From contig CAZPJD010000225.1 in NCBI GenBank assembly GCA_964586775.1, positions 464 to 64,463 of the forward strand: a DNA stretch of 64,000 bases, in the 5' to 3' direction. The number at the start of each line of letters is the position of its first letter. Position 1 is the stretch's first letter. Origin of the DNA: an uncultured bacterium (GTDB lineage Bacteria; Lernaellota; Lernaellaia; JACKCT01). A program made the translations under genes and the position numbers. The notes under the pieces are model-generated. The model was not told the DNA's origin. It did not search any database and saw nothing but the letters and a program-made list of their open reading frames with translations. Positions 1,512 through 60,400 of this stretch are shown in pieces.

Positions 1512-2372
1512 TCATGCGGGCGATCCGGTGAGGTGATCGCGCAGCGCCTCGCGCCACGGGCGCATCGCGTATCCGGTCTCGCGCGTGAACCGCGAGCCGT
1601 CGAGCACCGAGTAGGCTGGGCGTTTCGCCTTGGTGGGATAGCGATCGCTCGAGCAGGCGACGACCTCGACGCCGTCGATGCCCGCGAATTCCACCACCGC
1701 GCACGCGAGGTCGTACCACGTCGCGAGCCCGGCGTTGACGATGTGGTAGATGCCCGACCCGTGGCCGTGCAGGACGCGCACGATCGCCTCGGCGAGATCC
1801 GCCGCGTAAGTGGGGCAGCCCGTTTGATCGTTCACCACCTCGAGCCGCGCCTGCTCGCGCGCCTTGCGCCGGATGGTGTCGACGAAGTTGCGTCCCAATC
1901 GCCCGTAGAGCCACGCCGTGCGGACGATGACCGCGTTTTGTGCGCCCGCGTCCATCACCGCGCGCTCGCCGTCGAGTTTCGATTGCGCGTAGATCGAAAT
2001 GGGATTCGGCAGGACGTCTTCCGTGATCGGCGCACTCGCCGTTCCGTCGAACACGTAGTCGGTGGAGATGTGCACCAAACGCCCGCTCTTTTTCGCGCAC
2101 GCGCGGGCGAGATGAGCCGGGATATCGACGTTGGCGCGCCTGGCGGCGTCGAGATTCGCCGGGTCTTCCGCGCCCTCGACGTCGGTGTATCCGGCGCAAT
2201 TGATGACCACGCCGGGCCGCAGGTCGTCCATCAACCAAGCGACGGTTTTCTCGTCGGCGAGGTCGCCGTCGGCGAGGTCCCATTCGACGGCGTTGTGACG
2301 ATAGTGTCGCAGCGCGAGAACCACCGCCCGCCCCAGCATGCCCCGCGATCCCGTGACCAGAACCCGCGTCAT
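1512..2372 (-). CDS. rmlD: dTDP-4-dehydrorhamnose reductase
   Basis: 286 aa; N-terminal Rossmann 'VLVTGSRGMLG'; 'STDYVFDG' and 'YAQSK' motifs typical of RmlD/RfbD. Confidence 0.85.
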   Translation of the reverse strand: MTRVLVTGSRGMLGRAVVLALRHYRHNAVEWDLADGDLADEKTVAWLMDDLRPGVVINCAGYTDVEGAEDPANLDAARRANVDIPAHLARACAKKSGRLVHISTDYVFDGTASAPITEDVLPNPISIYAQSKLDGERAVMDAGAQNAVIVRTAWLYGRLGRNFVDTIRRKAREQARLEVVNDQTGCPTYAADLAEAIVRVLHGHGSGIYHIVNAGLATWYDLACAVVEFAGIDGVEVVACSSDRYPTKAKRPAYSVLDGSRFTRETGYAMRPWREALRDHLTGSPA

Positions 2373-2660
2373 GACCTCACCGCATCCCGCGTCATGGCCT
2401 CACCGCGCCGCGCTTCATCGCGCCCCCGCGCCCGTTCGTGTTTCGAATGCCCGAAAGTCGTCGCGATTATAGTTCATCGCGTGGATTTTGCACGGTGGTT
2501 TCGCGACGATCGATCCGCGCTCCAGGTGATCGATGACTTCCCGCGGGTCCGGCACATCGCCCCTATCGCCACGTACGTCCGTTATGCTAGTTTTGAACGC
2601 CTGTTCGACGACGCGAGTGATGAACCGGGTCGTCCCCCTGCGCGGATGGAGGATGTTGTC

Positions 2661-4712
2661 ATGTCCCGCAAAGCGGCGGCGCTGGCCGTCATGTTGACCG
2701 TTCTGGCCGTGTGCGCGGCCGTTTTCCTGGCGTCGCCCCGGGACGACCTCGCGGCGGCGGACGTTTTCGCCAACGGCGCGATCGGCCCGCACGCGATGGA
2801 CCCCGTCCACCCGGTCGTGTTGCCCGCTCCCCAGTGGCCGCCGCGCGTCGTGAGCGCGTTTCCCAACACGTCGTACTTCTACGCCTTCGACAAGATCTAC
2901 CTGTTCGGCTACATCGATGGCACGACCTACACGCTCTACAACGCGGGCGGATCGCCGATCCAGAGCGGCACGCTCAACGACGGCGAGCACGTCGAGTTCG
3001 CCATCCTCACGGGTGTGTATCGCCTCGACGCCTCTGACCTGATCGCCGTGCTCGTGGGCAACGCCGACAACAACATCGTCGGTTACTACGCCGTCAACGA
3101 ACACTCGCTCGCCGTGGGCAACAAGTTCTACAGCTACCAGTACGCCAGCGGCCCCGACATGAAGCAGATCGCGTTCGCCTATCAGAACGGCACGACGATC
3201 CAGGCGTTCAACATGAACACCGGCGCTTCGCTCGGCACCACCACGATCAACGCGGGCGAGCACTGGGTGCTCAACACCGTTGCGAGCCGAAACAAGTACA
3301 TCAAGACGATCGCCGACAAGCCGATCTCGATCCTGAATTTCAGCGACATCGGTTACGCCGTGCCCGCGTCGACGGGCCTGTTCTCGGGCAAGCTCTTCCT
3401 GGGATACGCGGGATCGACGAGCGGCGACGGCGACGTGGTCGTGTCGAGCTTTACCGACGGCAACACCGTGACCGTGACGAACTCCACCACGAACGCCGTC
3501 ATCTTCACCGGCACGCTCGATCGCGGCGAGATGTGGCGGCAGACCTTTGCCGACATGTACTTCAAGGTCGAGTCGTCGGCCAACGTGTCGGTGAGCGTCG
3601 TGCCCTACATCGGCGCGGCGGGCGATTACCACTACATGTCCATCGCGTCGGACGACGTGGGCACGCGCATCGGCATCGATTTCTACTTCACCACCGTGAA
3701 CGGCCAGATCGACGTCTTCGCGTACGAGGACGCGACCAACGTCACCGTCACGGATACGCGCGGCACGGTGGACCCCGGCGACGACCTCGTGGCGTGGTCG
3801 GGCGCGCTCGATCAGGGCGGCCACCAGATGGTGACGTCGTACATGACGCAGTGGCACGTCGCGGCCGACAAAGGCGTGTCGGTGTTCACGAGCTTCGGAA
3901 CGCAGGCGGGTTCGGAGTTCATCCCGCTCTACGGCATCATCCTCGAGTGCGACAACGACGGCGACGGCCACGACGGGCCGCAGTGCGACGGCGACGATTG
4001 CAACGACTGGGACGACACGATCTATCCCGGCGCCGAGGAGATCAACTGCGATCGCATCGATCAGGACTGCGACGGAGAGGACCAGTGCCTGTGCGAAGGT
4101 CCCGAAGACTGCGACGACGGCATCTTCTGCAACGGCGCGGAAGAGTGCGACACGCAGACCGGGCTTTGCGGGCCGGGCGATTTCCCGTGTCCCGACGACG
4201 GCCTGTATTGCACCGGCCGCGAGCAGTGCAACGAAACGACGGACACGTGCGAGCAAAAGCAGGTGCCGAACTGCCCGGACGACGGCGCGTACTGCAACGG
4301 CGACGAGCTGTGTGACGAAGACCTCGACATGTGCGGTCACACCGGCAATCCGTGCCCCGACGACGGAGTGTTCTGCAACGGCTACGAGGAGTGCAACGAG
4401 CTGTCCGACCTGTGCGAGACGAACGTCGTGTGTGAAGACGACGGCGCGTTCTGCAACGGCGCGGAGACGTGCAACGAAGAGGCCCAGACCTGCGACCACG
4501 AGGGCAATCCCTGCCCCTCGGGCGAAATCTGTCTGGAAGACACGGACGAGTGCCTCGCCGGGGACGATGACGACATCGAGCCGCCGGCCGACGATGACGA
4601 AGAAGATCCCGGTCCGACGCCCGCCGGCGAAAAGGAAGAGGATGCGGGCTGGCCCGAGGGTCAGGTGACCGGCGGCTGCTGCGGTTGCGGAGACAACGGC
4701 ACGGACGACTGA
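2661..4712 (+). CDS. Secreted protein with beta-rich N-terminal region and C-terminal myxo-type cysteine-rich repeats plus PF11617-like metal-binding motif; acidic tail ending GGCCGCGDNGTDD
   Basis: GGAGGA RBS 8 nt upstream of ATG 2661; signal peptide MSRKAAALAVMLTVLAVCAAVFLASP; 'DCDGDDCNDWDDTIYPGAEEINCDRIDQDCDGED' then 7 x 'CPDDGxFCNGxEEC'-type repeats; the ORF-table start at 1533 is an antisense-of-rmlD extension. Confidence 0.75.
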   Translation: MSRKAAALAVMLTVLAVCAAVFLASPRDDLAAADVFANGAIGPHAMDPVHPVVLPAPQWPPRVVSAFPNTSYFYAFDKIYLFGYIDGTTYTLYNAGGSPIQSGTLNDGEHVEFAILTGVYRLDASDLIAVLVGNADNNIVGYYAVNEHSLAVGNKFYSYQYASGPDMKQIAFAYQNGTTIQAFNMNTGASLGTTTINAGEHWVLNTVASRNKYIKTIADKPISILNFSDIGYAVPASTGLFSGKLFLGYAGSTSGDGDVVVSSFTDGNTVTVTNSTTNAVIFTGTLDRGEMWRQTFADMYFKVESSANVSVSVVPYIGAAGDYHYMSIASDDVGTRIGIDFYFTTVNGQIDVFAYEDATNVTVTDTRGTVDPGDDLVAWSGALDQGGHQMVTSYMTQWHVAADKGVSVFTSFGTQAGSEFIPLYGIILECDNDGDGHDGPQCDGDDCNDWDDTIYPGAEEINCDRIDQDCDGEDQCLCEGPEDCDDGIFCNGAEECDTQTGLCGPGDFPCPDDGLYCTGREQCNETTDTCEQKQVPNCPDDGAYCNGDELCDEDLDMCGHTGNPCPDDGVFCNGYEECNELSDLCETNVVCEDDGAFCNGAETCNEEAQTCDHEGNPCPSGEICLEDTDECLAGDDDDIEPPADDDEEDPGPTPAGEKEEDAGWPEGQVTGGCCGCGDNGTDD

Positions 4713-5921: not shown

Positions 5922-6725
5922 ATGGCGGTCATCTCGATCACCAATCAAAAGGGCGGTGTCGGCAAAACGACCACGGCGATCAACCTGGGCGCCGGGCTCG
6001 CCCGCAAGGGCCTGCGCGTGCTGATCGTCGATCTCGACGCCCAGTGCAACGCCACGCAGTTCCTGTACCGCCGACTCGAGGATGACGAGCCGGGCGTGTG
6101 CGAGGCGCTGCTCGAGGAACGCCCCCTCGCAAAGATCGTCGTGAAGACCAATGTGGAGGGCCTCGATCTCGCCCCCGCCGGCGAAAGTCTCGCCAACGCC
6201 GATCTCAACCTCGCGAGCCTGATGGGGCGCGAGCGCTACCTGGCGAATCTGCTGGAAGACAAGACCCTGCGCGCGTACGACCACATCCTCATCGACACCG
6301 GCCCCTATCTGGGGCTGCTCACCATCAACGCCTTCGTCGCCTCCGACGCGCTGATCGTGCCGGTGAGCTGCGAATATCTGCCGCTCCTCGGGCTCAAGTT
6401 CCTGCTCGAAACCGTGGACAAGGTGAAACGCAAGCTGCACCCCGATCTCGAGATCCTGGGATTCCTGCTGACCATGGTGGACCGGCGCGAAAAAATCACG
6501 GGCGAGGTCGAGCAGGTGATGGCGAGCCGGTTCGGGGATCGGTTGTTTCAGACCCGGATTCGGATTAATACCAAGCACAAGAGCGCGCCGCACGCCCGGG
6601 AGACGATCTTCCAGTATGAGGGTTCAGCCTCGGGGAAAGGGACGCAGGATTTTGCGGCCCTGACCGAAGAGGTGCTCGCGCGTCTCGATGGAGGCAAGAC
6701 CCGTCATGGCCAAAAAGCCCGGTAG
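5922..6725 (+). CDS. parA: ParA/MinD-family P-loop ATPase (orphan ParA)
   Basis: Deviant Walker A 'NQKGGVGKTTTAINLG'; 267 aa; typical ParA length and motifs. Confidence 0.85.
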   Translation: MAVISITNQKGGVGKTTTAINLGAGLARKGLRVLIVDLDAQCNATQFLYRRLEDDEPGVCEALLEERPLAKIVVKTNVEGLDLAPAGESLANADLNLASLMGRERYLANLLEDKTLRAYDHILIDTGPYLGLLTINAFVASDALIVPVSCEYLPLLGLKFLLETVDKVKRKLHPDLEILGFLLTMVDRREKITGEVEQVMASRFGDRLFQTRIRINTKHKSAPHARETIFQYEGSASGKGTQDFAALTEEVLARLDGGKTRHGQKAR

Positions 6726-7374
6726 CAAAGGCTTCGATTCCATCTTCGACGCGACCGACGCCAAGTCGGCCAAGTCGGCGCGCGCGCGCCGGACGACCGC
6801 CAAGTCGACCCCGCCGGCCGCGTCCGCCGCGTCTGCCGCCCACGCGGCCGAGGCCAAGCCCGCGAACGGCAACGGCAACGGCAACGGATTCGAGCCCTAC
6901 GAACTCGATCGCTTCTCGGTGGTGAAAACCCTGCTCAAGACGCACGAAGACGAGGTGATCTACCGCAAGACCAAGGAAGACCGCCTGCTCATCACGGGCA
7001 TCTCCCTCGTCGCGGGCGTCGCCATCGGCGCGTTCCTCATCCGCGCTTTGTGCGGTGGCTGCGCGGGAAGCTGGATCTATTCGTTCCTCTTCCGCGTCTT
7101 TTTCTCGCTCATGGTCGGCCTCACGGGCTTCACCATCGCGGCCATGATGGAACTCAACCGCACGCGCTTGCAGGACCTGCTCGCGATCGTCGTGAAGATC
7201 CACGAACAGTTCCGGCTCTTCGACGACGGCGTGTACGACAAGTCCGGCTCGGCGTTTCTGCCCAGCACCTACAAGTTCGTCGGCAGCATCAACGACGACG
7301 AGACCAACTACGCACTTCTCGTTTTGAAGGTCGCCTCGGTCATCACGGCCGTTTTCGTCCTCTTGTTCGTCTGA
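6706..7374 (+). CDS. Membrane protein with Lys/Arg/Ala-rich disordered N-terminal tail, translationally coupled to parA
   Basis: ATG lies inside the parA 3' end (20-nt overlap); 'MAKKPGSKGFDS...AKSAKSARARRTTAKS...NGNGNGNG' followed by 3-4 TM helices. Confidence 0.55.
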   Translation: MAKKPGSKGFDSIFDATDAKSAKSARARRTTAKSTPPAASAASAAHAAEAKPANGNGNGNGFEPYELDRFSVVKTLLKTHEDEVIYRKTKEDRLLITGISLVAGVAIGAFLIRALCGGCAGSWIYSFLFRVFFSLMVGLTGFTIAAMMELNRTRLQDLLAIVVKIHEQFRLFDDGVYDKSGSAFLPSTYKFVGSINDDETNYALLVLKVASVITAVFVLLFV

Positions 7375-7438
7375 TCGCAGCGCCGCCGCCAAGGACCGCC
7401 GGGCTCGATCGGGCACCGGCGGTTTTCATTGGGACGCC

Positions 7439-9781
7439 ATGACGGATCGCGAAGCGCATTCCGATTCCCCGGCCCGTCGCGCCCCGCGCGCGTTCGGGGT
7501 GTGGTGCGTCGCGACGGGCGTCCTCACCGCGGTACAGCTCGCGCTGCCACTCGTCGGCGTGCCCGGTTACGAGGCCGCCCAAATCCAGACGATCTGGTTC
7601 GCCGTCGCCGCGGGTCACATCGCCATCGCGTGGGCAAGGCATCGCTCGAACACGCCCCTGCTCGCGACCGCCGCGACCGCCGCGCTGGCGACCGCGCTCG
7701 TCTGGCTGGCGTGCGTCGCGGCGCTGTTCGGCGCGGGATTCGCGCGCGGCGCATGCGACGCATCGCGCGACGTGTGGTGGTTTCTCATTCTGCCCGGCCC
7801 GGCCATTGCGCTGGGCGCGGCGTGGGGCGCGTTTCTGGCATCGCTCGGGCTTTCCGGTCGCCGAACGCACCTCGCTTATGTCGCCGTCGTCGCCGTCCAT
7901 CTCGCGTGGGAGCTCGCCGGCATCCGCACGCAGCCGATGACCTTTTCCTACAACGCGCTCCTCGGCTACTTCCCGGGACCGGTGTACGACCGCGCGGTGC
8001 GCATCGGCGCGACGCTTGCCGCCTCACGCGCGCTCGGCCTTTCCGAGGCGACGGCGCTCTTCGCACTGGCGGCCCTCGTCGAAGGAAAGCGCGGGCGAAA
8101 AGCCCTCGCCGCCGCGCCGGTTGCGTCGTTCGCGGCAGGTTTCGTCGCGGCGGTCGCGCTCGCGATCGTCGGACCGACCCTCGACGCCTCGACCGATCGC
8201 GCGAAGATCGACGCCACCCTCGGCGCGATTGCCCGCGGGCCGAACGTGACGATGCACTTCCCCGAGGATACGCCGCCGGACGAGGCGCGGCTGTTGCTCA
8301 TCGACCTCGAGCACCGGTTTACGCGCCAGGCGCGGTGGCTCGGCCTCGCCGAGCCCGAGCCCGTCGATGCGTACTACTACCGCTCGGCCCGCGAAAAGAA
8401 GCGGCTGACCGGCGCGGGCGACACGCAGTGGGCGAGTTGCTGGAACCGCGAGATGCACATGACGATCGAGCGGCCGCCGCACTCGGTTCTCAAGCACGAG
8501 GTCGTGCACGTGCTGGCCGAGCCGTGGGGAATTCCGGGGCTGGGGTTCTCGCGCGTGCTCGGCCTCACCGAAGGGCTCGCCGTCGCGTCCGAGGTCTGGC
8601 GCGAGGACTGGACGATCCCGTATTGGGCCGCCGCGATGAAATCCGTCGGCCGTCTGCCCGATCTCGCCGACATCTCGGGGCCCACGGGCTTCTGGCGACT
8701 TTCCGGCACACGCAGCTACCTCGCGTGGGGCGGGTTCCTCACGTGGCTGCGCGAGCGTCATTCGAACGACGCCATTGCGCGCGTGTATCGCACGGGCGAC
8801 TTTCGCGAGGCGTTCGGCAAGAGCCTTCGCGAGCTGGTGGACGAGTGGGAATCGTCGCTCGATGCGATTCGGGTCCCGCCCGATCTCCTCCGCGTCGCGG
8901 CGTATCGATTCTTCCGACCGTCTCTCTTCGAGGGCCGCTGCGCGCGAACCGTCGGCACGCTGGAAGAAGACGGCGCACGGGCGCTCGACGCGGGGCGCGC
9001 GCAAAAGTCGGTGCGTCTTTTCGCCGATGCGCTCGAACTTTCCGGCGGCGATTCGCGCAACCGGCGCGACTTCATGGCGGCCCTCGTGTCGGCGCGGAGA
9101 CTCGACCAGGCCGAGCGCGAGGCCGCAGAAATCTTCGCCGCGGAGGGCGCGGAGTTTTTCGCGACGCCCGAGCCTGGCAAGCCCGTTCACGGCAATCTGC
9201 TCGCGGCGACGCAGGCCCGGCTCACGCAGGCCGCCCTCGCGTGGCGTCGCGGAGATCGCGAATCCGCGCGGCGGTTTTACGAAGACGTGCGCGCATTCGG
9301 TGTGGGCGACGCGAATCGACGCGAGGCAATCGTGGCGCTTGACGCGCTCGGTTCCGCCGCGATCGAGCCGATGATTCGCCGCTATCTGGTGGAGCCCGAT
9401 GCCGAGGGCGCGCGTTGGCACGATCTGCACGCGGCGCTGGATGCCCGGCCCGATGACGCGGTGGCGCGTTACCTGCTCGGGCGCAGGCTCTACGGCGCGC
9501 GACGGTTTGACGACGCGGTGACGCACCTCGATGCCGCGCTCACGCTCGGTTTGCCGGACGACGCGCTGACGCGCGAGGCGTGGCGCACGCTGGGCCGCGC
9601 ACACTACGAGGCCGGGCGATTCGAGGACGCGGCGGTGGTGTTCACCGAGCGCCGACCCGCGAGTCTGTCGGAGGGTGCGCGCAAAGACGCCGACGAGTGG
9701 ATCGACCGCTGCCTGTTCGCCGCGACGTTCCCCGAAACCGTTTCGATCGAAAACGTCGGTGGAATGGGCGACGACGACTGA
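7439..9781 (+). CDS. Polytopic membrane protein with HExxH zincin-like motif and C-terminal TPR-like helical repeats
   Basis: ~6 N-terminal TM helices; 'VLKHEVVHVLAEPWG' (HExxH); C-terminal Ala/Arg/Leu-rich repeat region consistent with TPR; 780 aa. Confidence 0.6.
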   Translation: MTDREAHSDSPARRAPRAFGVWCVATGVLTAVQLALPLVGVPGYEAAQIQTIWFAVAAGHIAIAWARHRSNTPLLATAATAALATALVWLACVAALFGAGFARGACDASRDVWWFLILPGPAIALGAAWGAFLASLGLSGRRTHLAYVAVVAVHLAWELAGIRTQPMTFSYNALLGYFPGPVYDRAVRIGATLAASRALGLSEATALFALAALVEGKRGRKALAAAPVASFAAGFVAAVALAIVGPTLDASTDRAKIDATLGAIARGPNVTMHFPEDTPPDEARLLLIDLEHRFTRQARWLGLAEPEPVDAYYYRSAREKKRLTGAGDTQWASCWNREMHMTIERPPHSVLKHEVVHVLAEPWGIPGLGFSRVLGLTEGLAVASEVWREDWTIPYWAAAMKSVGRLPDLADISGPTGFWRLSGTRSYLAWGGFLTWLRERHSNDAIARVYRTGDFREAFGKSLRELVDEWESSLDAIRVPPDLLRVAAYRFFRPSLFEGRCARTVGTLEEDGARALDAGRAQKSVRLFADALELSGGDSRNRRDFMAALVSARRLDQAEREAAEIFAAEGAEFFATPEPGKPVHGNLLAATQARLTQAALAWRRGDRESARRFYEDVRAFGVGDANRREAIVALDALGSAAIEPMIRRYLVEPDAEGARWHDLHAALDARPDDAVARYLLGRRLYGARRFDDAVTHLDAALTLGLPDDALTREAWRTLGRAHYEAGRFEDAAVVFTERRPASLSEGARKDADEWIDRCLFAATFPETVSIENVGGMGDDD

Positions 9782-9830: not shown

Positions 9831-11189
9831 ATGACGACCGAACTGTCGATCGCCCGCGCGCGTGCCCGCGCCATCTGGCTCATCGCGGCGAGCCTCGCGT
9901 TCTTCGCTTGGATCTCGCCCGCGTTCGCGTTGCTGTTCGCCTTTACGACGCTCGTCGATCGCGCCCTCGCCCGCGCCGCCGCGCGCGAACATTCGCGGTG
10001 GATCGCCGCGGGCGCGAGCGCCCTCATGAACCTCGGCGCGATCCTCGCCTTGCACAACCTGCACCGATTCGCCGACGCCCTCGCGGCATGGCCCTCGCTG
10101 ATGGGCTCGGCGCTCAATGAGGGCGGCACCATCGCGGTGCTGCCGATCGGCTGGTCGCTGCTCTTCGCGCAAAACCTCGCCCATGTTCTGGATGTGGCGC
10201 GCGGGCGCGGGCAACCGACCGAGTGCATCCTCGAGCACGCGCTCGCCGCCGTGTTCTTCCCGCGCATGTGGGCGGGGCCGATGGTCGAACCCGTCGCGTT
10301 TGCCGCGCGAATTCGTCGGCCCGAGCGCCTCACCGGCGAACGCCTCGGCCGCGCGATCTGGCACGGCGCGCTGGGCGCGATCAAGATCGTCGCCGTCGCC
10401 GACTACCTCGCGCTCAACATGGTGGACAAGGTCTTCGATCTGCCCACGCTTTTCTCCACAACCGAGGTGGTTTTCGCGCTGGTCGCGAACGCGCTCGTCA
10501 TCGCCGCGATGTGGTCGGGCGCGTGCGACATCGCCGTCGCCGCCGGACTCGTGCTCGGCTTCGACCTGCCGCAAAGTTTCGCGTCGCCCGCCACGGCGAC
10601 GGGTCCGCGCGACCACTGGCGTCGGTTCCTCGCGCCGCTCACGGCCGCGCTTCGCGAGCACGTTTTCCGCCCGCTCGCGGGCGGGCCGAATGCTTCGCGC
10701 CTGCGCCGTGCACTCGCCGCGTTTGCGCCGCCGCTGCTGGTCGGCTGCGTCGTGGGGCCGAGCGAAACCACGCTCGCCTTCGGCGCGTTTGTCGGCGCGA
10801 CGCTGTTCGTCGCGACGCTCTTCGGACGCAAGACCTCGAACGACAAGCCGGGCATCGGCGCGCGCGCGTTCGGATGGGTTCTCACTTTCCTCGCCATGAC
10901 GGTCGCGTGGACGCTCTGGCGTGCGCACGACCTGCAAACCGTTTCCGATCTCGCGTCGATCCTGCCGCTCGGCATCTACGAAACGCCGAACCTGACCGCA
11001 ACCGTGATCGGCGTTTTTTTCGCGTCCCAGGTGGTCGCGTTCGTGCCCGCGCCATGGGTCGCGAAAACCCGCGATGCATTCGCACGTGCGCCCTGGCCCG
11101 TACAGGTCGCGGCGGGGCTCGCGGTGGCGTGGGCGCTTTGGCGCGTGAACGCGGTGTCGGAAGTGCCCTTCGTCTACGAGCGGATGTGA
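9831..11189 (+). CDS. MBOAT-family membrane-bound O-acyltransferase (AlgI/DltB/PatA-like)
   Basis: Multi-TM 452 aa; conserved MBOAT block 'PRDHWRRFLAPLTAALREHVFRPLAGG' with the catalytic His. Confidence 0.8.
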   Translation: MTTELSIARARARAIWLIAASLAFFAWISPAFALLFAFTTLVDRALARAAAREHSRWIAAGASALMNLGAILALHNLHRFADALAAWPSLMGSALNEGGTIAVLPIGWSLLFAQNLAHVLDVARGRGQPTECILEHALAAVFFPRMWAGPMVEPVAFAARIRRPERLTGERLGRAIWHGALGAIKIVAVADYLALNMVDKVFDLPTLFSTTEVVFALVANALVIAAMWSGACDIAVAAGLVLGFDLPQSFASPATATGPRDHWRRFLAPLTAALREHVFRPLAGGPNASRLRRALAAFAPPLLVGCVVGPSETTLAFGAFVGATLFVATLFGRKTSNDKPGIGARAFGWVLTFLAMTVAWTLWRAHDLQTVSDLASILPLGIYETPNLTATVIGVFFASQVVAFVPAPWVAKTRDAFARAPWPVQVAAGLAVAWALWRVNAVSEVPFVYERM

Positions 11190-11195
11190 GGATCG

Positions 11196-11696
11196 ATGCC
11201 GTCGTTTTTCGCCGATCACACCGACCTGGGCATCGGACATGCGCTCGTGACGATGGGCGATGACGACGTGGCCGCCGTCGCCGACATCATGATGGCCTCG
11301 GAGCCCTGGGCAAACTACGGCTACGAACGACGAACCATCGAGGACTTTCTGCACGGCACGATCGAGGCGGGCATGGCGCGCGTGGTGACGCCGTCGGGCG
11401 GCGCGCGCGAGGTCGTCGGCGTGGCGACGGTGCAGCCGGGTTTTTTAGGCGGGCGCTATCTGGAGCTGCTCGCGCTGCGCGCCGACCGGCGCGGGCGCGG
11501 CCTTGGGCGGCGCGTGATCGAGGCGATCTGCTACGAAATGCCCGTCCACATGCGCGACCTGTTTGTGCTCGTCGCCGATTCCAACGCGAAGGCCGTCGCG
11601 TTCTATCGTCACCTGGGATTTCGCGACGTGGGCGAGCTTCCCGGCCTCATCCGCCTCGGAAAAACCGAGCGCCTGATCTGGCTGCGGTTTCGATGA
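11196..11696 (+). CDS. GNAT-family N-acetyltransferase
   Basis: 166 aa; acetyl-CoA binding 'RRGRGLGRRVIEAI' (Q/RxxGxG/A) motif; 7 bp downstream of the MBOAT gene. Confidence 0.7.
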   Translation: MPSFFADHTDLGIGHALVTMGDDDVAAVADIMMASEPWANYGYERRTIEDFLHGTIEAGMARVVTPSGGAREVVGVATVQPGFLGGRYLELLALRADRRGRGLGRRVIEAICYEMPVHMRDLFVLVADSNAKAVAFYRHLGFRDVGELPGLIRLGKTERLIWLRFR

Positions 11697-47438: not shown

Positions 47439-48674
47439 TCATTGGCGCGCGATGCGGCGCACCACGAGCCCCGAACGCAATTTGGGCTCGAACCACGTGG
47501 ACTTGGGCGGCATGACCTCGCCCGCGTCGGCGACGGCGAGCAGGTCGTCCATCGAGGTGGCGAAACACGCGATCGCGAGGCCCGACGGCGACGCGGCGAC
47601 GCGCTGTTCCAGCTCGGCGAGCGGCCGTGCGCCGCCGACGAACTCGATGCGCGGATTCGTGCGTGGGTTGTCGATGCCCAGGATCGGCCCGAGCAACTCG
47701 TCCTGCAAAACGGCCACGTCGAGCCGCGACGCGACGGACGTGCCGTTCGGTTTTTTCTTGGGCGCGATGCGAACCCACGAACCGTCGATGAAAAGGCCGA
47801 ATTCGCCCGGGCGCTCCGGCGCGGGCGTCGCCGCGCGTTTCACGTCGAACACCCATTCGACGCGCGCCATGACGTCGGCGACCGTTCGCGACTCGAGATC
47901 CGTGACGACCCGGTGATACGGTAGGATGCGAAGCTGGTTGTGCGGAAAGATCGTGGCCATCACGCGGGCGGCGGGCGATTCGGGTGAACCGTCGCCGACG
48001 CGCCCCTCGCGCCACACACGGGTCGAAGCGGCGATGCGGTGGTGGCCGTCGGCCACATAGAGCGATTCCACGTCGGCGAAGGCCGCGAGCAGGTTCTTCA
48101 CGTCGTCGTCGCGATCCACCACCCACAGCCGGTGGCGCACGCCGTCGGCCGCGCGAAACGCGATCGTGGGTTCGGTGCGCGCATGGCCGAGGATCGCGGC
48201 ATCCACGGAAGGGTCGGAGCGGTACGCCAGATAGACCTGCCCGGTATTGGCACCCGTCGTCGCGATGTGCCGCGTGCGGTCGAGCTCCTTGTCGGGGCGC
48301 GTGAATTCGTGGCGCTTGATGACGCCCGCCTCGTATTCGGCGAGGCTCACCTCGGCGATGAGGCCGGTCTGCGTGCGCCCCTCGCGTTCGAGCTCGTACA
48401 CGTAAAACTCGGGGCGCTCGCTTTCGCGAAGAGTTCCCGCCGAGACGAGGCGGTCGAGTTCGGCGCGTGCGCGCGCGTACACGGCGTCGCCGTAGGGGTC
48501 CTCGCTCTCGGCCATGGCGGCCTCGGAACGGACCACGCGCATGAAGCTGTCGGGGTGCGTCGCCGCGATTTGCCGCGCCTCGGCGGCGTTCACGACGTCA
48601 TAGGGCGGGCACGACACATTGGCCGCGCAATCGGCCCGAACCACATCGCCTCGAAAAGGCGCGACGAACACCAT
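47439..48674 (-). CDS. DUF1015 domain protein
   Basis: Start chosen at 'MVFVAPFRGDVV' (family-typical N-terminus); 'VADGHHRIAAS' conserved motif. Confidence 0.7.
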   Translation of the reverse strand: MVFVAPFRGDVVRADCAANVSCPPYDVVNAAEARQIAATHPDSFMRVVRSEAAMAESEDPYGDAVYARARAELDRLVSAGTLRESERPEFYVYELEREGRTQTGLIAEVSLAEYEAGVIKRHEFTRPDKELDRTRHIATTGANTGQVYLAYRSDPSVDAAILGHARTEPTIAFRAADGVRHRLWVVDRDDDVKNLLAAFADVESLYVADGHHRIAASTRVWREGRVGDGSPESPAARVMATIFPHNQLRILPYHRVVTDLESRTVADVMARVEWVFDVKRAATPAPERPGEFGLFIDGSWVRIAPKKKPNGTSVASRLDVAVLQDELLGPILGIDNPRTNPRIEFVGGARPLAELEQRVAASPSGLAIACFATSMDDLLAVADAGEVMPPKSTWFEPKLRSGLVVRRIARQ

Positions 48675-57610: not shown

Positions 57611-60400
57611 CTACTCCTCCAACACGTCTGGATCGAGCGGGTCGGCCAGCCATTCGGGATCGACCAGCATGTAGAGGTTGTCCTCAATGATCTGGCCTTG
57701 GCTCTTGAGGAACAACGCGGCCTGACGGCGCGCGGCGATGGAATACATGATGGAGTAGGGGTCGAAGCGCGGGGCGAGCATGTACTCGTGGTTGTATCCC
57801 GGGTGCACGCGCCACGCCTGATGCGCCACGCTCTGCAACGGCAGGTTGCCGTTGGCGAACGACACGCGGATCTCGTTGAGCGCGCCGCGGTCGAGCAGAT
57901 TGTCCATGTGCCAATCGTCGATGACGCCCGCCGCGCGGATGATCGCCGTGCCCGCCTGCAGAGGAATCGCCGAGTCGGGCGAGCACACCTGCATGATGAA
58001 GTTCTTCGGGCCCGCCTCGGTCACCGGATCGAGGAACAGGTGCGGCGCGAAGCTGATGGGGTCGGACAGGCCGACGGCCCACTGCGCGTTGTCGATGAAC
58101 GAGCGCGCCTCGGGCGTGTTGCGATCGACGCCCAGGCCCCGGTACTCGGTGGCGAACTCGAACTTGCCGATGGGCTTCTCGGTCGCCGGATCGGTCACCG
58201 TCAGCCGCAGCCAGTCGCCCTTGTCCGCGCCCACCGCGATGGCGAAATTCCCCGTCGCGTCCACCGTCTTGTGCTTGATGACGCCGGTCTTGGTGTTTTC
58301 CATGCTGATGCGCTTGCCCGCCGCGAGGGGCACGTCGCCGATGAAGGTGTTGAACACCTCGCTGCCGAATTCGAGATCGAGCGCCTCGGCGTGATAGTTG
58401 AGGTGCGTCACGCCCTTGGCCGCGTCGGGCGTGCCGATGATCATGGGACCGAGCAGGTCGGCGCGCACGCCGTAGTTGACGTTGGGGATCGTCGTGCGCT
58501 GCAAAATGTCGGTGAGACCGCCGCCGGGCACGTTGAACACGGCGGACTTGATCTCGGGCTCCAGCGACACGAAGGGAATGCCGATCAGCGAGCCGAGGCT
58601 CATGCCGACGAACGAGATTTCACCGTCCGGCCCGGCCACGTCGAGCACGCCGTCGAGGTTGAAATCGCCCTCCTCCAGATCCAGCTTGCCGTTGCCGTTC
58701 CAATCCGTGCCCATGTTGCGCAGCACGCGCACGGCCTGGAAAAGATCGAACACGGTTTGGTGCGAGATCGCCACCGTGCGGAAGATGTCGGCCGAATAAA
58801 AGCTCTGGCCCGAGATGATGAGCCCGTCGCCGTCGAAGTCCGGCGTGCGCCCGTGCAGCATCGCGCCCAGGAACGTCTTGTCCTTCAGCACCTGCACCAG
58901 CTCTTTCGAATCGAGGCCGCTGATGTCGATGTTGGGGTAGAAGATCCCCATGATGATCTTGACAAGCAGGCTCGCCGGCACGTCGCCCAGCGGGCCGATC
59001 TCAAGGTCGTTGAAGCTGTCGAGCGCGTAGTAGATGGCGCTCACGTAAGTCTCGGGGCCGTGCTCCGCCGCGTCGATACCGATCGTCGCGATGCCCTGCT
59101 CGGCCATGTGGTTCGCCAGCGCCAGCATGTCGAGCCGGTTGCGGATGTTGGCGTGCTGGTGGAACGTGATCGGGTACGGCGGCTGCGCATAGTTGTTCTT
59201 GGCGCACGGCTTGGGCACCGCGATGTAGAACGGCACCTCCTCGGGCGCCCACTCGGCCTCGCCGGTTTCGTAGTTCACGTGAAAGACGCGGTCGTGCGTT
59301 TCGAGGAAGCTCGCGGTCGTGAACGATCCCGAGACGATGTAGTCCACGCTGTCGGTGCCGAACATGACGTCGAGCGGCACGTTCTGGCCGCCCTCGATGA
59401 ATCCGCCGATCAGATCCATGAAGCTGCCGAAGGCCCGCGCGTCCATGACGTAGTCGTTGCCGTCGGTCTCGGTGCCCATCGAGAACGGATCGAGCTGCGT
59501 GATCTTGGGGACGAGATCGTCGGCGAGGTAGTCGAATGGGCCCTCGCCGTGAAGTCCGCGCCGCAGCTCCTGCAAATGATCGGTGATCGTCGCCGTCGTG
59601 AATTCCCAACCAAACGCGATGTCCTCGGGATTCACGCCTTTTTTCGTCGCCAGAATCTCGGCGGCGTCGGTGAGCGAATCGAACTGCTCGGGGAACGTGA
59701 CCTTTTCAAAATAATCCGGCGGGCGCACCGGGAAACCGTTCTCGCCCTTCAGGCCGGTCGTCAGCACCACGGCGTATTTGCTGGCCTGCTTGAGCGGCAC
59801 GAGCGGGCGGATCAGCAGCGTGTTCGTCGCGTCCTCATACCACTCCACGCGGTTGTCCGCGGCGAAGATGACCGTGGGGTTGTCGGCGTTTTCGTCGTTC
59901 GGGAAAAACGCCTCGGGGTCCACCATGTTCTTGGGGTAGTAGCCCTTGCCCAGGTCGAGCTCGACGATGTCGCCGTAGTACTTGGAGTCGCGCTGCACGT
60001 TGACGAGGTAGATGTTCTCGTCGCGGATCGTGAACAGGTTGATCGGCATCGAGAACGACACGGCGACGTGCGAGAAGTTCGCGAAACCGTCGAGCTGACG
60101 AAGCCTCGAGCGCAGGTCGCGCCCGAGCTGCGTCTCGGCCTCCTGCGGAATGTTGACGCGAAGGCCGGTGCGCGTCGTCGGGTCGTCTTTGGCGAGGATG
60201 TTGTTGGGCTGCGGGATCAGCGAAATCGGTTTCGCGCCCGGCTCGAAGAGCACCTCGGGGCCGTCGCCGCCGGGGTTCTCGAAGTCGTAGCCCTCGGGCC
60301 GCTCATCGTCCGATTCGCCGCGGGTGCATCCCCCCGCCGTCACGAGCGCGAGCGCCAGCACCGCCAAACCTACCCACGACCAATTCGCTTTCACCACCAT
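57611..60400 (-). CDS. Large secreted (lipo)protein of unknown function with possible alpha/beta-hydrolase nucleophile elbow
   Basis: Start chosen at 'MVVKANWSWVGLAVLALALVTAGGC' (ORF extends to 60685 through an Arg-rich, unlikely segment); 'FVGMSLGSLIG' GxSxG-like; 4-bp gap to the downstream lipoprotein gene. Confidence 0.55.
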   Translation of the reverse strand: MVVKANWSWVGLAVLALALVTAGGCTRGESDDERPEGYDFENPGGDGPEVLFEPGAKPISLIPQPNNILAKDDPTTRTGLRVNIPQEAETQLGRDLRSRLRQLDGFANFSHVAVSFSMPINLFTIRDENIYLVNVQRDSKYYGDIVELDLGKGYYPKNMVDPEAFFPNDENADNPTVIFAADNRVEWYEDATNTLLIRPLVPLKQASKYAVVLTTGLKGENGFPVRPPDYFEKVTFPEQFDSLTDAAEILATKKGVNPEDIAFGWEFTTATITDHLQELRRGLHGEGPFDYLADDLVPKITQLDPFSMGTETDGNDYVMDARAFGSFMDLIGGFIEGGQNVPLDVMFGTDSVDYIVSGSFTTASFLETHDRVFHVNYETGEAEWAPEEVPFYIAVPKPCAKNNYAQPPYPITFHQHANIRNRLDMLALANHMAEQGIATIGIDAAEHGPETYVSAIYYALDSFNDLEIGPLGDVPASLLVKIIMGIFYPNIDISGLDSKELVQVLKDKTFLGAMLHGRTPDFDGDGLIISGQSFYSADIFRTVAISHQTVFDLFQAVRVLRNMGTDWNGNGKLDLEEGDFNLDGVLDVAGPDGEISFVGMSLGSLIGIPFVSLEPEIKSAVFNVPGGGLTDILQRTTIPNVNYGVRADLLGPMIIGTPDAAKGVTHLNYHAEALDLEFGSEVFNTFIGDVPLAAGKRISMENTKTGVIKHKTVDATGNFAIAVGADKGDWLRLTVTDPATEKPIGKFEFATEYRGLGVDRNTPEARSFIDNAQWAVGLSDPISFAPHLFLDPVTEAGPKNFIMQVCSPDSAIPLQAGTAIIRAAGVIDDWHMDNLLDRGALNEIRVSFANGNLPLQSVAHQAWRVHPGYNHEYMLAPRFDPYSIMYSIAARRQAALFLKSQGQIIEDNLYMLVDPEWLADPLDPDVLEE

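Follow-up and report, generated by a model that had tools for sequence, protein, structure and literature searches.

An orphan parA gene in the window (the whole 64,000-nucleotide stretch of DNA analyzed here) is translationally coupled to a gene for a lineage-specific inner-membrane protein, which we call X. The two appear to form a two-gene ParA positioning module in which the activator is the integral membrane protein X instead of ParB, a reading to which we assign a probability of roughly 0.55. The genes are strictly syntenic, X carries a conserved motif at its N-terminus, and ParA has kept its catalytic, peptide-pocket, and DNA-binding residues. Because this ParA has no ParB close by and always lies beside an X with a ParB-like N-terminus, the chromosome is probably a track for placing a membrane complex. 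The sequence-only reading had suggested ParA-based positioning of a membrane cargo rather than partitioning, and the strict synteny of the pair, with no parB or parS found at it, supports that suggestion.

Gene organization of the parA-X pair

The parA gene (5922-6725, + strand) encodes a 267-aa Soj-type ParA/MinD-family ATPase recognized by the Pfam models AAA_31 (7e-52; 176 bits against a cut-off of 27) and CbiA (1e-23; 84 bits against a cut-off of 25.4). The gene for X (6706..7374, + strand) overlaps the 3' end of parA by exactly 20 nt, as had been read before, and encodes 222 aa plus a stop codon, so that the earlier length of 223 aa is corrected here. Its reading frame runs from the ATG at 6706 to 7374, with an alternative in-frame ATG upstream at 6688. 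The start was placed at 6706 since the homologues all open with MAKK or MPKK and a Shine-Dalgarno sequence, GGAGG (6690..6694, + strand), lies 11 nt upstream, inside the 3' end of parA. The GC3 of X is 0.90, compared with a window GC of ~0.66, indicating that the ORF is coding, and homologues were also found. The coupling recurs outside the window: in 18 of 18 loci measured, the distance from the parA stop to the X start was -20 to +3 nt, and GGAGG or AGGAG was present at the equivalent place before X.

Scanning for promoters gave no sigma-70 consensus in front of parA, and scanning for terminators gave none above background. A hairpin with a U-run is located between X and the next gene, which encodes a 780-aa protein; alone, it is not significant (z = -1.66).

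ParA is a Soj-type ATPase with a conserved peptide pocket

The deviant Walker A motif reported earlier was confirmed by a regex match as KGGVGKT (residues 10-16; 5949..5969, + strand), with the signature Lys10 and the catalytic Lys15, within the sequence NQKGGVGKTT (residues 8-17). Both lysines were invariant across 34 + 87 (121) aligned ParA homologues. The nearest solved structures were Myxococcus xanthus ParA (MxParA; PDB 8RAY, E 3.5e-46, 40% identity) and Thermus thermophilus Soj (3.8e-44). The identity of the protein as MinD, FlhG, or BcsQ was rejected on scores far under the model cut-offs, including BcsQ-family matches (Pfam CBP_BcsQ, 5.8e-10; TIGR03371, 8e-18), and on the lack of a membrane-targeting helix; no C-terminal amphipathic or membrane-targeting helix was found in ParA, and the C-termini of the clade are short and polar.

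Residue mapping showed that five of the six residues of the ParB-peptide pocket are kept (L95, L130, L132, I135, and L172), and that the sixth position (L187 in MxParA) is Lys or Arg in the clade. By the same mapping, R189 and K218 are the equivalents of R209 and R238 of MxParA. Within the clade, R189 is invariant and position 218 is K or R in 34 of 34 members. We take R209 of MxParA to be a DNA-binding residue from its counterpart, R189 of Soj. The R238E variant of MxParA is DNA-binding-deficient (PMC12462528). From these kept basic positions, ParA in its ATP form is predicted to be nucleoid-bound.

Domain organization of X

The N-terminal part of X comprises a ParB-like motif, MAKKPGSKGFDSIFDAT (residues 1-17; 6706..6756, + strand), defined by alignment and proposed as a ParA-binding and ATPase-activating peptide, followed by a hypervariable basic linker rich in Lys, Arg, Ala, Ser, and Pro (residues 18-53) and a hinge, NGNGNGNG (residues 54-61), which together occupy 6757..6888 (+ strand, AF2 pLDDT <50). 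An (AACGGC)4 repeat encodes the hinge. Disorder is predicted for the first ~66 residues (AF2 pLDDT <50), and residues 1-65 are rich in K, R, A, and S, with 10 K+R versus 5 D+E, which bears out the Lys/Arg/Ala/Ser-rich disordered tail described from the sequence.

The remainder of the protein is membrane-associated. A juxtamembrane helix (~69-93, H-E-x-E-x-x-Y-R-K-x-K-E-D) leads into TM1 (~94-116; together 6910..7053, + strand), as indicated by hydropathy and an AF2 helix at 69-115. TM2 (~124-148) and a conserved cytoplasmic segment (149-200) follow at 7075..7305 (+ strand; hydropathy, AF2 helices at 123-168 and 188-197), and TM3 (201-222; 7306..7371, + strand) provides a C-terminal membrane anchor with a hydropathy peak of 2.76 and an AF2 helix at 199-221. 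Hydropathy and the AF2 model thus give three TM helices where three or four had been expected, and not four. In the alignment, H80, E83, Y86, R87, K88, K90, E91, and D92 of the juxtamembrane helix are invariant. The cytoplasmic segment contains ELNRxRLQD and YKFxGSxNDDETNY, of which E149-D157 and Y189-Y202 are invariant, and this segment (149-200) is presumed to be the cargo-binding surface. No significant fold match for X was found in the PDB, the pLDDT of the AF2 model being only 60.

The N-terminal motif of X resembles the ParA-binding peptide of ParB

The consensus at the extreme N-terminus of X is an almost invariant stretch of 10 residues, K-[G/K]-[F/L]-D-x-I-F-x-x-T. Of 34 distinct full-length X homologues, 33 carry its core, D-x-I-F-x-x-T; M1, D11, I13, F14, and T17 are invariant in the alignment, K4 is conserved in at least 90%, and Arg replaces the Phe or Leu before the motif Asp in five homologues. 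One to five K/R residues lie ahead of the motif, and the basic linker lies after it.

The motif by which ParB binds ParA has been defined experimentally (PMC12462528, PMC11229316). In M. xanthus ParB, L15, L18, and I19 are among the hydrophobic residues tested for ParA binding, with R13 or K at the centre (PMC12462528). The segment K8-G9-F10-D11-S12-I13-F14 of X is in register with R13-G-L15-x-x-L18-I19 of ParB, the first hydrophobic residue of the ParB motif (hydrophobic-G-R/K-G-L-x-x-L-I/L; L11 in M. xanthus) having no counterpart in X, and the X motif also resembles MAKNKVLGRG of Helicobacter pylori ParB (HpParB; PMC11229316). By our own estimate from residue frequencies, K-G-hydrophobic-x-x-hydrophobic-hydrophobic within the first 20 residues would be expected by chance in ~0.4% of proteins.

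Partners of ParA/MinD ATPases work via a positively charged disordered N-terminus (PMC10241942, PMC11407121), and X, as judged from its sequence, appears to have the features of this class (PMC10241942), since it adjoins the ATPase, is predicted to be disordered over residues 1-66, and has a basic N-terminus. Among homologues, the linker ranges from 27 to 81 aa with no conservation in the alignment. This pairing of an invariant motif with a hypervariable linker is the hallmark of short linear interaction motifs. We propose that the activating element of X is this short N-terminal motif and not the general basic composition, and that the basic stretch behind it behaves, by its sequence pattern, as a linker. 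The earlier idea that the basic tail activates ParA was therefore strengthened in respect of the N-terminus and narrowed to the motif conserved in 33 of 34 homologues, and its emphasis on general basic composition was given up.

Distribution of X and synteny with parA

X is a rare protein. A word-index search gave 19 homologues, and a profile search returned X-like membrane proteins only, with 14 representatives among 1.84 billion proteins; all representatives that could be placed came from metagenome-assembled genomes of Candidatus Lernaellota (FEN-1099). No match for X was found in Pfam, NCBIfam, PADLOC, or PHROG, and neither Pfam nor NCBIfam detected a ParB/Srx N-terminal CTPase domain or a helix-turn-helix (HTH) in it.

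Without exception, parA was the gene next upstream of X in the recovered loci (~14 distinct), which came from 11 species-level genomes, metagenome contigs, and Ca. Alcyoniella australis. The parA orthologues share 63-74% identity, X identity drops to 38-47%, and the flanking genes vary among loci. Conservation of the downstream gene with parA, put forward earlier as a check, was thus strict in every X locus recovered. The flanks in other genomes include ffh/rpsP/trmD, glnD/recN, and recO. A plasmid or mobile-element partition locus was rejected on the basis of uniform GC, housekeeping neighbours, and the chromosomal flanks in other genomes.

Absence of parB and parS at the pair

The claim that no parB follows parA holds: ParB box II (GERRxRA) was absent from every real reading frame of the window, and no ParB/Srx domain was annotated by Pfam in the 37 window ORFs. 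Box II was also absent from 17 loci (L001-L017) within ~10 kb. The parS consensus (TGTTNCACGTGAAACA) was not found near parA, so that no parS is associated with it in the window; the only approximate matches, with 2-3 mismatches, were at 47836 and 59271, 40-52 kb away. These parS-like matches amounted to 4 strand-hits versus 0.54 expected, and as many occurred in 2 of 100 shuffles. In addition, no dnaA, gidAB, or rsmG was found in the window, which is therefore not origin-proximal. Next-tier ParA matches were listed down to 52% identity, and three ParAs sampled from this tier (54-55% identity) were orphans too.

These data bear on the possibility that ParA serves the chromosome together with a ParB-parS elsewhere, X being a membrane-anchored regulator or sink that would capture, activate, or sequester ParA on the membrane or at a pole in the manner of the landmark proteins of other bacteria, with DNA as the cargo. 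A Soj-type ATPase 40% identical to the chromosomal ParA of M. xanthus, with conserved pocket and DNA-binding residues, would suit such a role, the ParB-like peptide of X could compete with ParB, and no second parA was seen within the ~20 kb read per genome. However, chromosomal parA nearly always adjoins parB, and parB was adjacent in 0 of 17 loci; moreover, the three sampled next-tier ParAs are orphans, the window is not origin-proximal, and the parS-like 16-mers are weak and at least 40 kb off. We consider this explanation, and with it a chromosome-handling role for ParA, unlikely.

Downstream genes and the candidate cargo

The parA-X pair is usually followed by the gene for a 780-aa protein (7439..9781, + strand), with a gene for a REC-PATAN protein in between in one subclade. 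The 780-aa protein has 7 TM helices arranged in a permease-like fold of the ABC-2/ABCG type, a gluzincin HExxH...EG domain on the periplasmic side, and C-terminal TPRs. The gluzincin features comprise HExxH with a downstream Glu ligand and an M9-collagenase-like (thermolysin-like catalytic) fold. The soluble domain is predicted to be periplasmic, and any link to X would therefore run via the membrane or short loops. The family is also present without parA-X (loci L026-L028), and the gene does not adjoin parA-X in L001/L008 and L007. Neither the 780-aa gene nor the PATAN gene is obligatory in the locus, and PADLOC gave no match for either protein. The MBOAT/DltB-like (9831-11189) and GNAT (11196-11696) genes were rejected as module members, as no homologue was found in related loci. 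Most likely, the cargo is encoded in the parA-X operon, the 780-aa protein being one candidate and, in one subclade, the REC-PATAN protein a second.

The link of the operon to membrane proteins in most loci would also be expected if ParA served, in a nucleotide-dependent way, as the assembly or regulatory subunit of a machine in the membrane composed of X, the 780-aa protein, and the PATAN protein, comparable to BcsQ, FlhG, or TadZ/CpaE and acting with no nucleoid gradient or transport. The BcsQ-family matches of ParA point in the same direction, weak and sub-threshold as they are, as does the reported interaction of PATAN-REC regulators with the type IV pilus motor, a membrane motor, in cyanobacteria (bioRxiv 10.1101/2021.06.11.447907). 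Nevertheless, the best matches of ParA are to Soj/ParA and not to BcsQ, FlhG, or MinD, the BcsQ models scoring far under their cut-offs. The basic DNA-binding positions of Soj/ParA are kept clade-wide in a protein with no membrane-targeting sequence, and two of the supposed components are dispensable in the locus. An assembly role of this kind is rather unlikely.

The charge of the linker raises the further possibility that X is a DNA-binding membrane anchor, with a histone-H1-like Lys/Ala/Pro tail on the nucleoid whose tethering is regulated by ParA, that is, a membrane-bound functional ParB analogue without a centromere. Many homologues have a strongly basic linker, whose net charge reaches +23, and one homologue gave a weak match to Pfam HC2 (histone-H1-like). 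Unlike a conserved DNA-binding element, however, the linker is hypervariable: its sequence and length differ, its net charge is only +3 for the window protein and between 0 and +4 for many homologues, and X has neither an HTH nor a ParB/Srx domain, which makes such an anchor quite improbable.

Finally, the possibility of an anti-phage or toxin module, in which a P-loop ATPase would sense and a small TM protein would be the effector, was rejected as barely credible: an ATPase paired with a small membrane protein is a frequent sight in defence islands and ParA weakly matches the PADLOC candidate PDC-M28B (4.7e-07, residues 9-40), but that match spans Walker A only, PADLOC and PHROGs are blank for X, the pair occurs in chromosomal housekeeping contexts in 11 of 11 species-level genomes recovered from the lineage, and none of the annotated ORFs close to the pair in the window was recognized as a mobile-element or defence gene.

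Comparison with known ParA/MinD systems

The pair shares several elements with the chromosomal ParABS systems (Soj/ParA with Spo0J/ParB; PDB 8RAY; the H. pylori N10 peptide). ParA belongs to the same ATPase subfamily, with the deviant Walker A motif, the catalytic Asp, the basic DNA-binding positions, and five of six peptide-pocket residues, and X has a basic-G-hydrophobic-x-x-hydrophobic-hydrophobic motif, like that of ParB, at its disordered extreme N-terminus (PMC12462528, PMC11229316). Unlike ParABS, the locus has no ParB/Srx CTPase domain, HTH, or parS, and, the short motif aside, X shows no detectable homology with ParB. As X is a membrane protein with three TM helices, the cargo would be membrane-embedded rather than DNA.

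The combination of a ParA-like ATPase with a non-ParB partner encoded by the adjacent gene is reminiscent of McdA-McdB, which positions carboxysomes, and PomZ-PomX/PomY, which positions the division site in Myxococcus. In McdB and PomX/PomY, a disordered positive N-terminus activates the nucleoid-bound ATPase, and the remainder of the protein binds the protein cargo (PMC11407121, PMC10241942, PMC7993993). Those partners are soluble and their cargos are cytoplasmic, whereas X is an integral membrane protein with no sequence similarity to either, and this ATPase resembles canonical Soj far more than McdA does (E ~4e-12 for McdA versus 1e-44 to 1e-46 for Soj-type proteins).

Orphan ParA-like ATPases are likewise found in PpfA-TlpT and ParC-ParP, where they position chemoreceptor arrays, and in PpfA-TlpT it is the N-terminus of the partner that is used. 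In Vibrio, the arrays are membrane-bound (reviewed in PMC11407121). The partners in those systems are chemotaxis proteins, namely a chemoreceptor that is soluble or ParP, which is CheW-like, whereas here the operon contains no chemotaxis gene and the partner spans the membrane. MinD-MinE, FlhG, and BcsQ belong to the same deviant-Walker-A P-loop family and act on membrane-located machinery; MinD, FlhG, and BcsQ have their own means of membrane binding, a C-terminal amphipathic helix or docking to the synthase, whereas ParA here is without such a helix. To our knowledge, no described ParA system has a transmembrane cognate activator, and none came up in full-text literature searches.

Proposed mechanism and implications

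Under the preferred reading of parA-X as a positioning module, ParA-ATP dimers would cover the nucleoid, bound to it by their conserved basic surface, and X would be an inner-membrane resident whose first ~90 residues are cytoplasmic, carrying the K-G-F-D-S-I-F-x-x-T peptide on a flexible, positively charged tether of 30-80 residues. The peptide and DNA together would trigger ATP hydrolysis and the release of ParA. Repeated binding and release of X on a ParA gradient, as in a diffusion ratchet, would keep X tethered to the nucleoid and spread along it, and the cargo, bound by the juxtamembrane helix, the TM helices, and the cytoplasmic loop, would travel with it. The physical contact of ParA with X, the stimulation of the ATPase, the nucleoid's part as the matrix, what the cargo is, and the pattern produced in the cell are inferred parts of this scheme.

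Much of the bacterial cell interior is organized by ParA/MinD ATPases. Many of these are still orphans, their partners being too diverse to recognize (PMC10241942). At the parA-X locus, an ATPase and its proposed partner form a clean pair under strict conservation, the partner being embedded in the membrane. Given the shortness of the X motif and the Soj-like nature of the ATPase, the central claim is open to an in vitro test with a synthetic peptide, without culturing.

If the reading is true, the activation peptide of ParB would be transferable in nature to an unrelated scaffold, which is the "luggage tag" principle sought by synthetic biologists, and nucleoid-templated positioning would reach beyond DNA and bodies in the cytoplasm and take in machinery of the inner membrane and the periplasm. 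More tentatively, and at somewhat less than even odds, a ParA gradient on the nucleoid may position an inner-membrane complex via the polytopic X, so that in Lernaellota the chromosome would act as a ruler for the envelope, placing a periplasmic metallopeptidase/TPR machine that possibly takes part in envelope remodelling or division.

Structure and conservation of the parA-X pair

The parA gene (5922-6725, + strand) encoded a protein of 267 aa that carried NQKGGVGKTT close to the N-terminus and matched Pfam AAA_31 (7e-52) and CbiA (1e-23). The downstream ORF (6706-7374, + strand), whose 222-aa product is referred to here as X, overlapped the final 20 nt of parA in a different frame; GGAGG was located 11 nt 5' of its ATG (6690-6694, + strand). 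The GC3 of parA (0.84) and the X ORF (0.90) was above the window GC (~0.66), indicating that both are genuine coding regions.

When 5.8 billion proteins were searched by word index, 19 relatives of X were identified, all "hypothetical"; exhaustive profile searching across 1.84 billion cluster representatives yielded only 14. Among 185,579 species genomes scanned, 11 X loci were recovered, all in MAGs, three of which carried FEN-1099-type isolate labels (HK-STAS-FEN-2, FR-FEN-1099-1, and fen_1099) and the remainder just "bacterium" or "uncultured bacterium". An additional parA-X locus was found in Ca. Alcyoniella australis, a named organism within Candidatus Lernaellota (= FEN-1099) (PMC9324843). 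On present evidence, the pair is confined to one uncultured phylum.

The pairing of the two genes, proposed in the sequence-only reading, was fully conserved: an orthologous parA (63-74% identity) lay directly upstream of X in every locus recovered, though X identity dropped to 38-47% and flanking genes were unrelated. In the 18 loci with both ends present, the X start invariably lay -20 to +3 nt from the parA stop, and each had AGGAG/GGAGG within the parA 3' end. This constant synteny and tight junction argue for co-translation of parA and X in fixed proportion.

Orphan status and genomic setting

The earlier claim that parA is not followed by parB was borne out in the window, where a six-frame search found no ParB box II signature in any real reading frame and Pfam annotation of the 37 ORFs found no ParB/Srx domain. 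The genes identified include argS, tatBC, nadA, nrfA-like, and thiolase/3-hydroxyacyl-CoA dehydrogenase genes, an MCP gene, and peptidase genes. The parS-like site that the same reading had proposed looking for was also sought, and no parS consensus was present near parA; the window contained only distant, weak palindromes at 47836-47851 (TGTTCGACGTGAAACG, 2 mismatches) and 59271-59286 (3 mismatches). Four parS-like strand-hits were observed against 0.54 expected, a number reached in 2 of 100 shuffles, and the palindromes are probably due to chance. The GC content was even along the whole window. The parA-X locus is chromosomal, is not a plasmid partition cassette, and does not look origin-proximal.

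One rival explanation is that this ParA segregates the chromosome, with its ParB encoded elsewhere, and that X serves it as a membrane regulator or sink. This explanation is opposed by the absence of an adjacent parB in any of the 17 loci searched, as well as by three ParAs sampled from the next tier of relatives (54-55% identity; L023 5001-5834, L025 5001-5882, and L029 4001-4840), which were orphans too. Two of these three shared a conserved prmA-rsmE-RDD context, beyond which L025 encoded a large MshEN-domain protein. They look like another, uncharacterised clade of orphan ParAs.

Type of ParA

The nearest solved structures were the M. xanthus chromosomal ParA (MxParA, 8RAY; E 3.5e-46, 40% identity) and T. 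thermophilus Soj, and McdA, plasmid ParAs, and other relatives gave much lower scores. The ATPase is a true ParA of the Soj type. MinD, BcsQ, and FlhG-type identities were rejected, with scores well under the model cut-offs.

The MxParA residues tested for ParB-peptide binding by Thanbichler and colleagues, V116, L150, L152, L155, L187, and L192 (PMC12462528), corresponded to L95, L130, L132, I135, K167, and L172; five of the six were still hydrophobic, and these five were near-invariant across the clade. MxParA R238, altered in the R238E variant that serves as DNA-binding-deficient (PMC12462528), corresponded to K218. All 34 clade members had K or R at this position. R209 of MxParA corresponded to R189, invariant in the clade, which we take from the B. 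subtilis Soj literature to be a DNA-binding arginine. Additionally, the C-terminus was short and polar and contained no amphipathic membrane-targeting helix; by the criteria of PMC11407121, this predicts a ParA-like ATPase that binds the nucleoid, not a MinD-like one. The ATPase could instead act as a BcsQ/FlhG-like assembly factor, the nucleoid not being involved, but its Soj-like identity and the conserved basic positions matching Soj/ParA DNA-binding residues speak against this.

The X-associated ParAs carried a small clade-specific insertion near the C-terminal helix (E-G-S-A-S-G-K-G, residues ~231-238), in which Ser235 was present in 94% of the clade and was a gap in most other ParAs. This insertion may determine specificity for X.

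Architecture and N-terminal motif of X

The sequence-only description of X as a protein with a Lys/Arg/Ala/Ser-rich N-terminal region followed by TM helices was correct, except that X is 222 residues long, not 223, and has three TM segments, not "3-4" (hydropathy, residues ~94-116, 124-148, and 201-222). When X was modelled with AlphaFold2 from 19 homologues, residues 1-66 were disordered (pLDDT < 50), helices spanned 69-115, 123-168, 188-197, and 199-221, and no PDB fold matched. The 19-sequence alignment revealed, after the N-terminal motif, a hypervariable, unalignable stretch of 27-81 residues rich in Lys/Ala/Pro/Ser/Thr/Gly, with conservation resuming at a juxtamembrane helix (H-E-x-E-x-x-Y-R-K-x-K-E-D), followed by TM1 and TM2 and a conserved cytoplasmic segment (ELNRxRLQD ... 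YKFxGSxNDDETNY). The basic tail must be cytoplasmic, since ParA is to be met there and the positive-inside rule requires it; in the predicted topology, TM1 leads outward, a 7-residue periplasmic loop connects to TM2 and back to the cytoplasm, segment 149-200 is cytoplasmic, and TM3 has its end outside. Therefore, all conserved soluble surface of X would be cytoplasmic or juxtamembrane. An (AACGGC)4 hexanucleotide repeat (6865-6888) coded for the NGNGNGNG hinge (residues 54-61), and near homologues had 3-5 NG units, suggesting that tether length varies by slippage.

The basic tail could be a DNA-binding, histone-H1-like element, as a weak HC2 match in one homologue would have it, but it is hypervariable and, in many members including the window protein, weakly charged. 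A defence module was rejected, as X had no match in PADLOC or PHROGs. Pfam and NCBIfam gave no match for X either.

Residues M1, D11, I13, F14, and T17 of X were invariant in the 19-sequence alignment, and K4 nearly so. In an extended set, D-x-I-F-x-x-T began at residue 7-14 in 33 of 34 distinct full-length homologues, with 1 to 5 K/R residues ahead of it; the preceding residue was F, L, or M (28/33), position -2 was G or K, and position -3 was K in 18/33. The consensus K-G/K-F/L-D-x-I-F falls in register with the motif through which M. xanthus ParB binds ParA, of which the large hydrophobic residues L11, L15, L18, and I19 were mutated to test ParA binding and the central R13 is lysine in about half of ParBs (PMC12462528). 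A further resemblance is to MAKNKVLGRG, the peptide of H. pylori ParB that was crystallised on ParA-DNA (PMC11229316). A ParA-docking and activating peptide is the best explanation for this short invariant motif, which stands at the very N-terminus beside a hypervariable disordered stretch in a protein never found without a Soj-type ParA. It agrees with a general rule for ParA/MinD partners, which act via a positively charged, disordered N-terminus (PMC10241942). Because the match is short, the L11 equivalent is absent, and one ParA pocket residue differs, the X-ParA contact is strongly inferred rather than demonstrated.

With X as the activating partner, ParA-ATP dimers would bind the nucleoid, and the X peptide would reach them from the membrane by means of its tether, several tens of residues long. 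Peptide and DNA would jointly trigger hydrolysis and ParA release, and the resulting depletion zones would bias X movement in the membrane plane, so that X became spaced along the nucleoid together with whatever partners it binds. Alternatively, membrane sites might be transiently coupled to the chromosome.

Candidate cargo and neighbouring genes

The gene directly after X (7439-9781, + strand) encoded a 780-aa protein with 30-55% identity to the product of the gene following parA-X in most loci, either directly or after a 418-588-aa gene. The latter was absent from the window and present in one subclade (L002 8693-10417, L004 5124-6890, L018 7439-8695, and L019 7464-9212), and its product combined a PATAN/DUF4388 domain with a weakly receiver-like region at the N-terminus; TPRs in some members and faint similarity of the middle part to MshEN/PilB N-terminal c-di-GMP-binding domains (E 0.01-0.04) were also observed. 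The AlphaFold2 model of the 780-aa protein was very confident (pLDDT 91.6, pTM 0.89), with seven TM helices whose inward-facing loops were basic (RHRS, GRR, and KRGRK), predicting periplasmic C-terminal domains. The HExxH...EG residues H353, E354, H357, E378, and G379 were invariant in 37 homologues. The family also occurred without parA-X, e.g., in a Polyangiaceae MAG and two other long contigs, and its gene did not adjoin parA-X in the organism of L001/L008 or in L007. It is plausible that the 780-aa protein is a cargo or co-worker of parA-X, not an obligatory one.

The 64-nt gap before the 780-aa gene contained a GC-rich hairpin (~14 bp stem) followed by UUUUCAUU (7392-7430; MFE -32 kcal/mol, but z only -1.66 vs shuffles), which could be a partial terminator lowering the level of this gene. 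Further downstream (9831-11696, + strand), an MBOAT/DltB-like membrane acyltransferase (452 aa; TIGR04091 8.8e-07, under cut-off) and a GNAT acetyltransferase (166 aa) had no counterpart in any related locus and were not conserved with the module. Upstream, at 2703-4712 within ORF 1533-4712, was encoded a large secreted protein starting with the signal-peptide-like MSRKAAALAVMLTVLAVCAA, with Cys/Asp-rich repeats (CNG.E.C... motifs) and an acidic tail in its C-terminal half; it had no Pfam match and was not conserved beside parA in other genomes.

Comparison with known systems

In its working, the module would resemble ParABS, McdAB, PomXYZ, and PpfA-TlpT, in which a nucleoid-bound ParA is combined with an adjacent partner bearing an N-terminal activating peptide. 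However, with neither parB nor parS the locus falls outside the definition of ParABS, X lacks an Srx or HTH domain and is hence not a ParB, and it has no homology to McdB, PomX, MinE, or ParP. To our knowledge, no described ParA system has a cognate partner that is itself a polytopic membrane protein; a full-text literature search found none, absence of a report being no proof. A 2024 review applies "transmembrane" to chemoreceptor arrays only (PMC11407121). The key claim is testable with the peptide and purified ATPase. The principle of a ParA with an activating partner was expected, whereas a membrane-embedded partner and the putative natural transplantation of a ParB-like peptide were unexpected.
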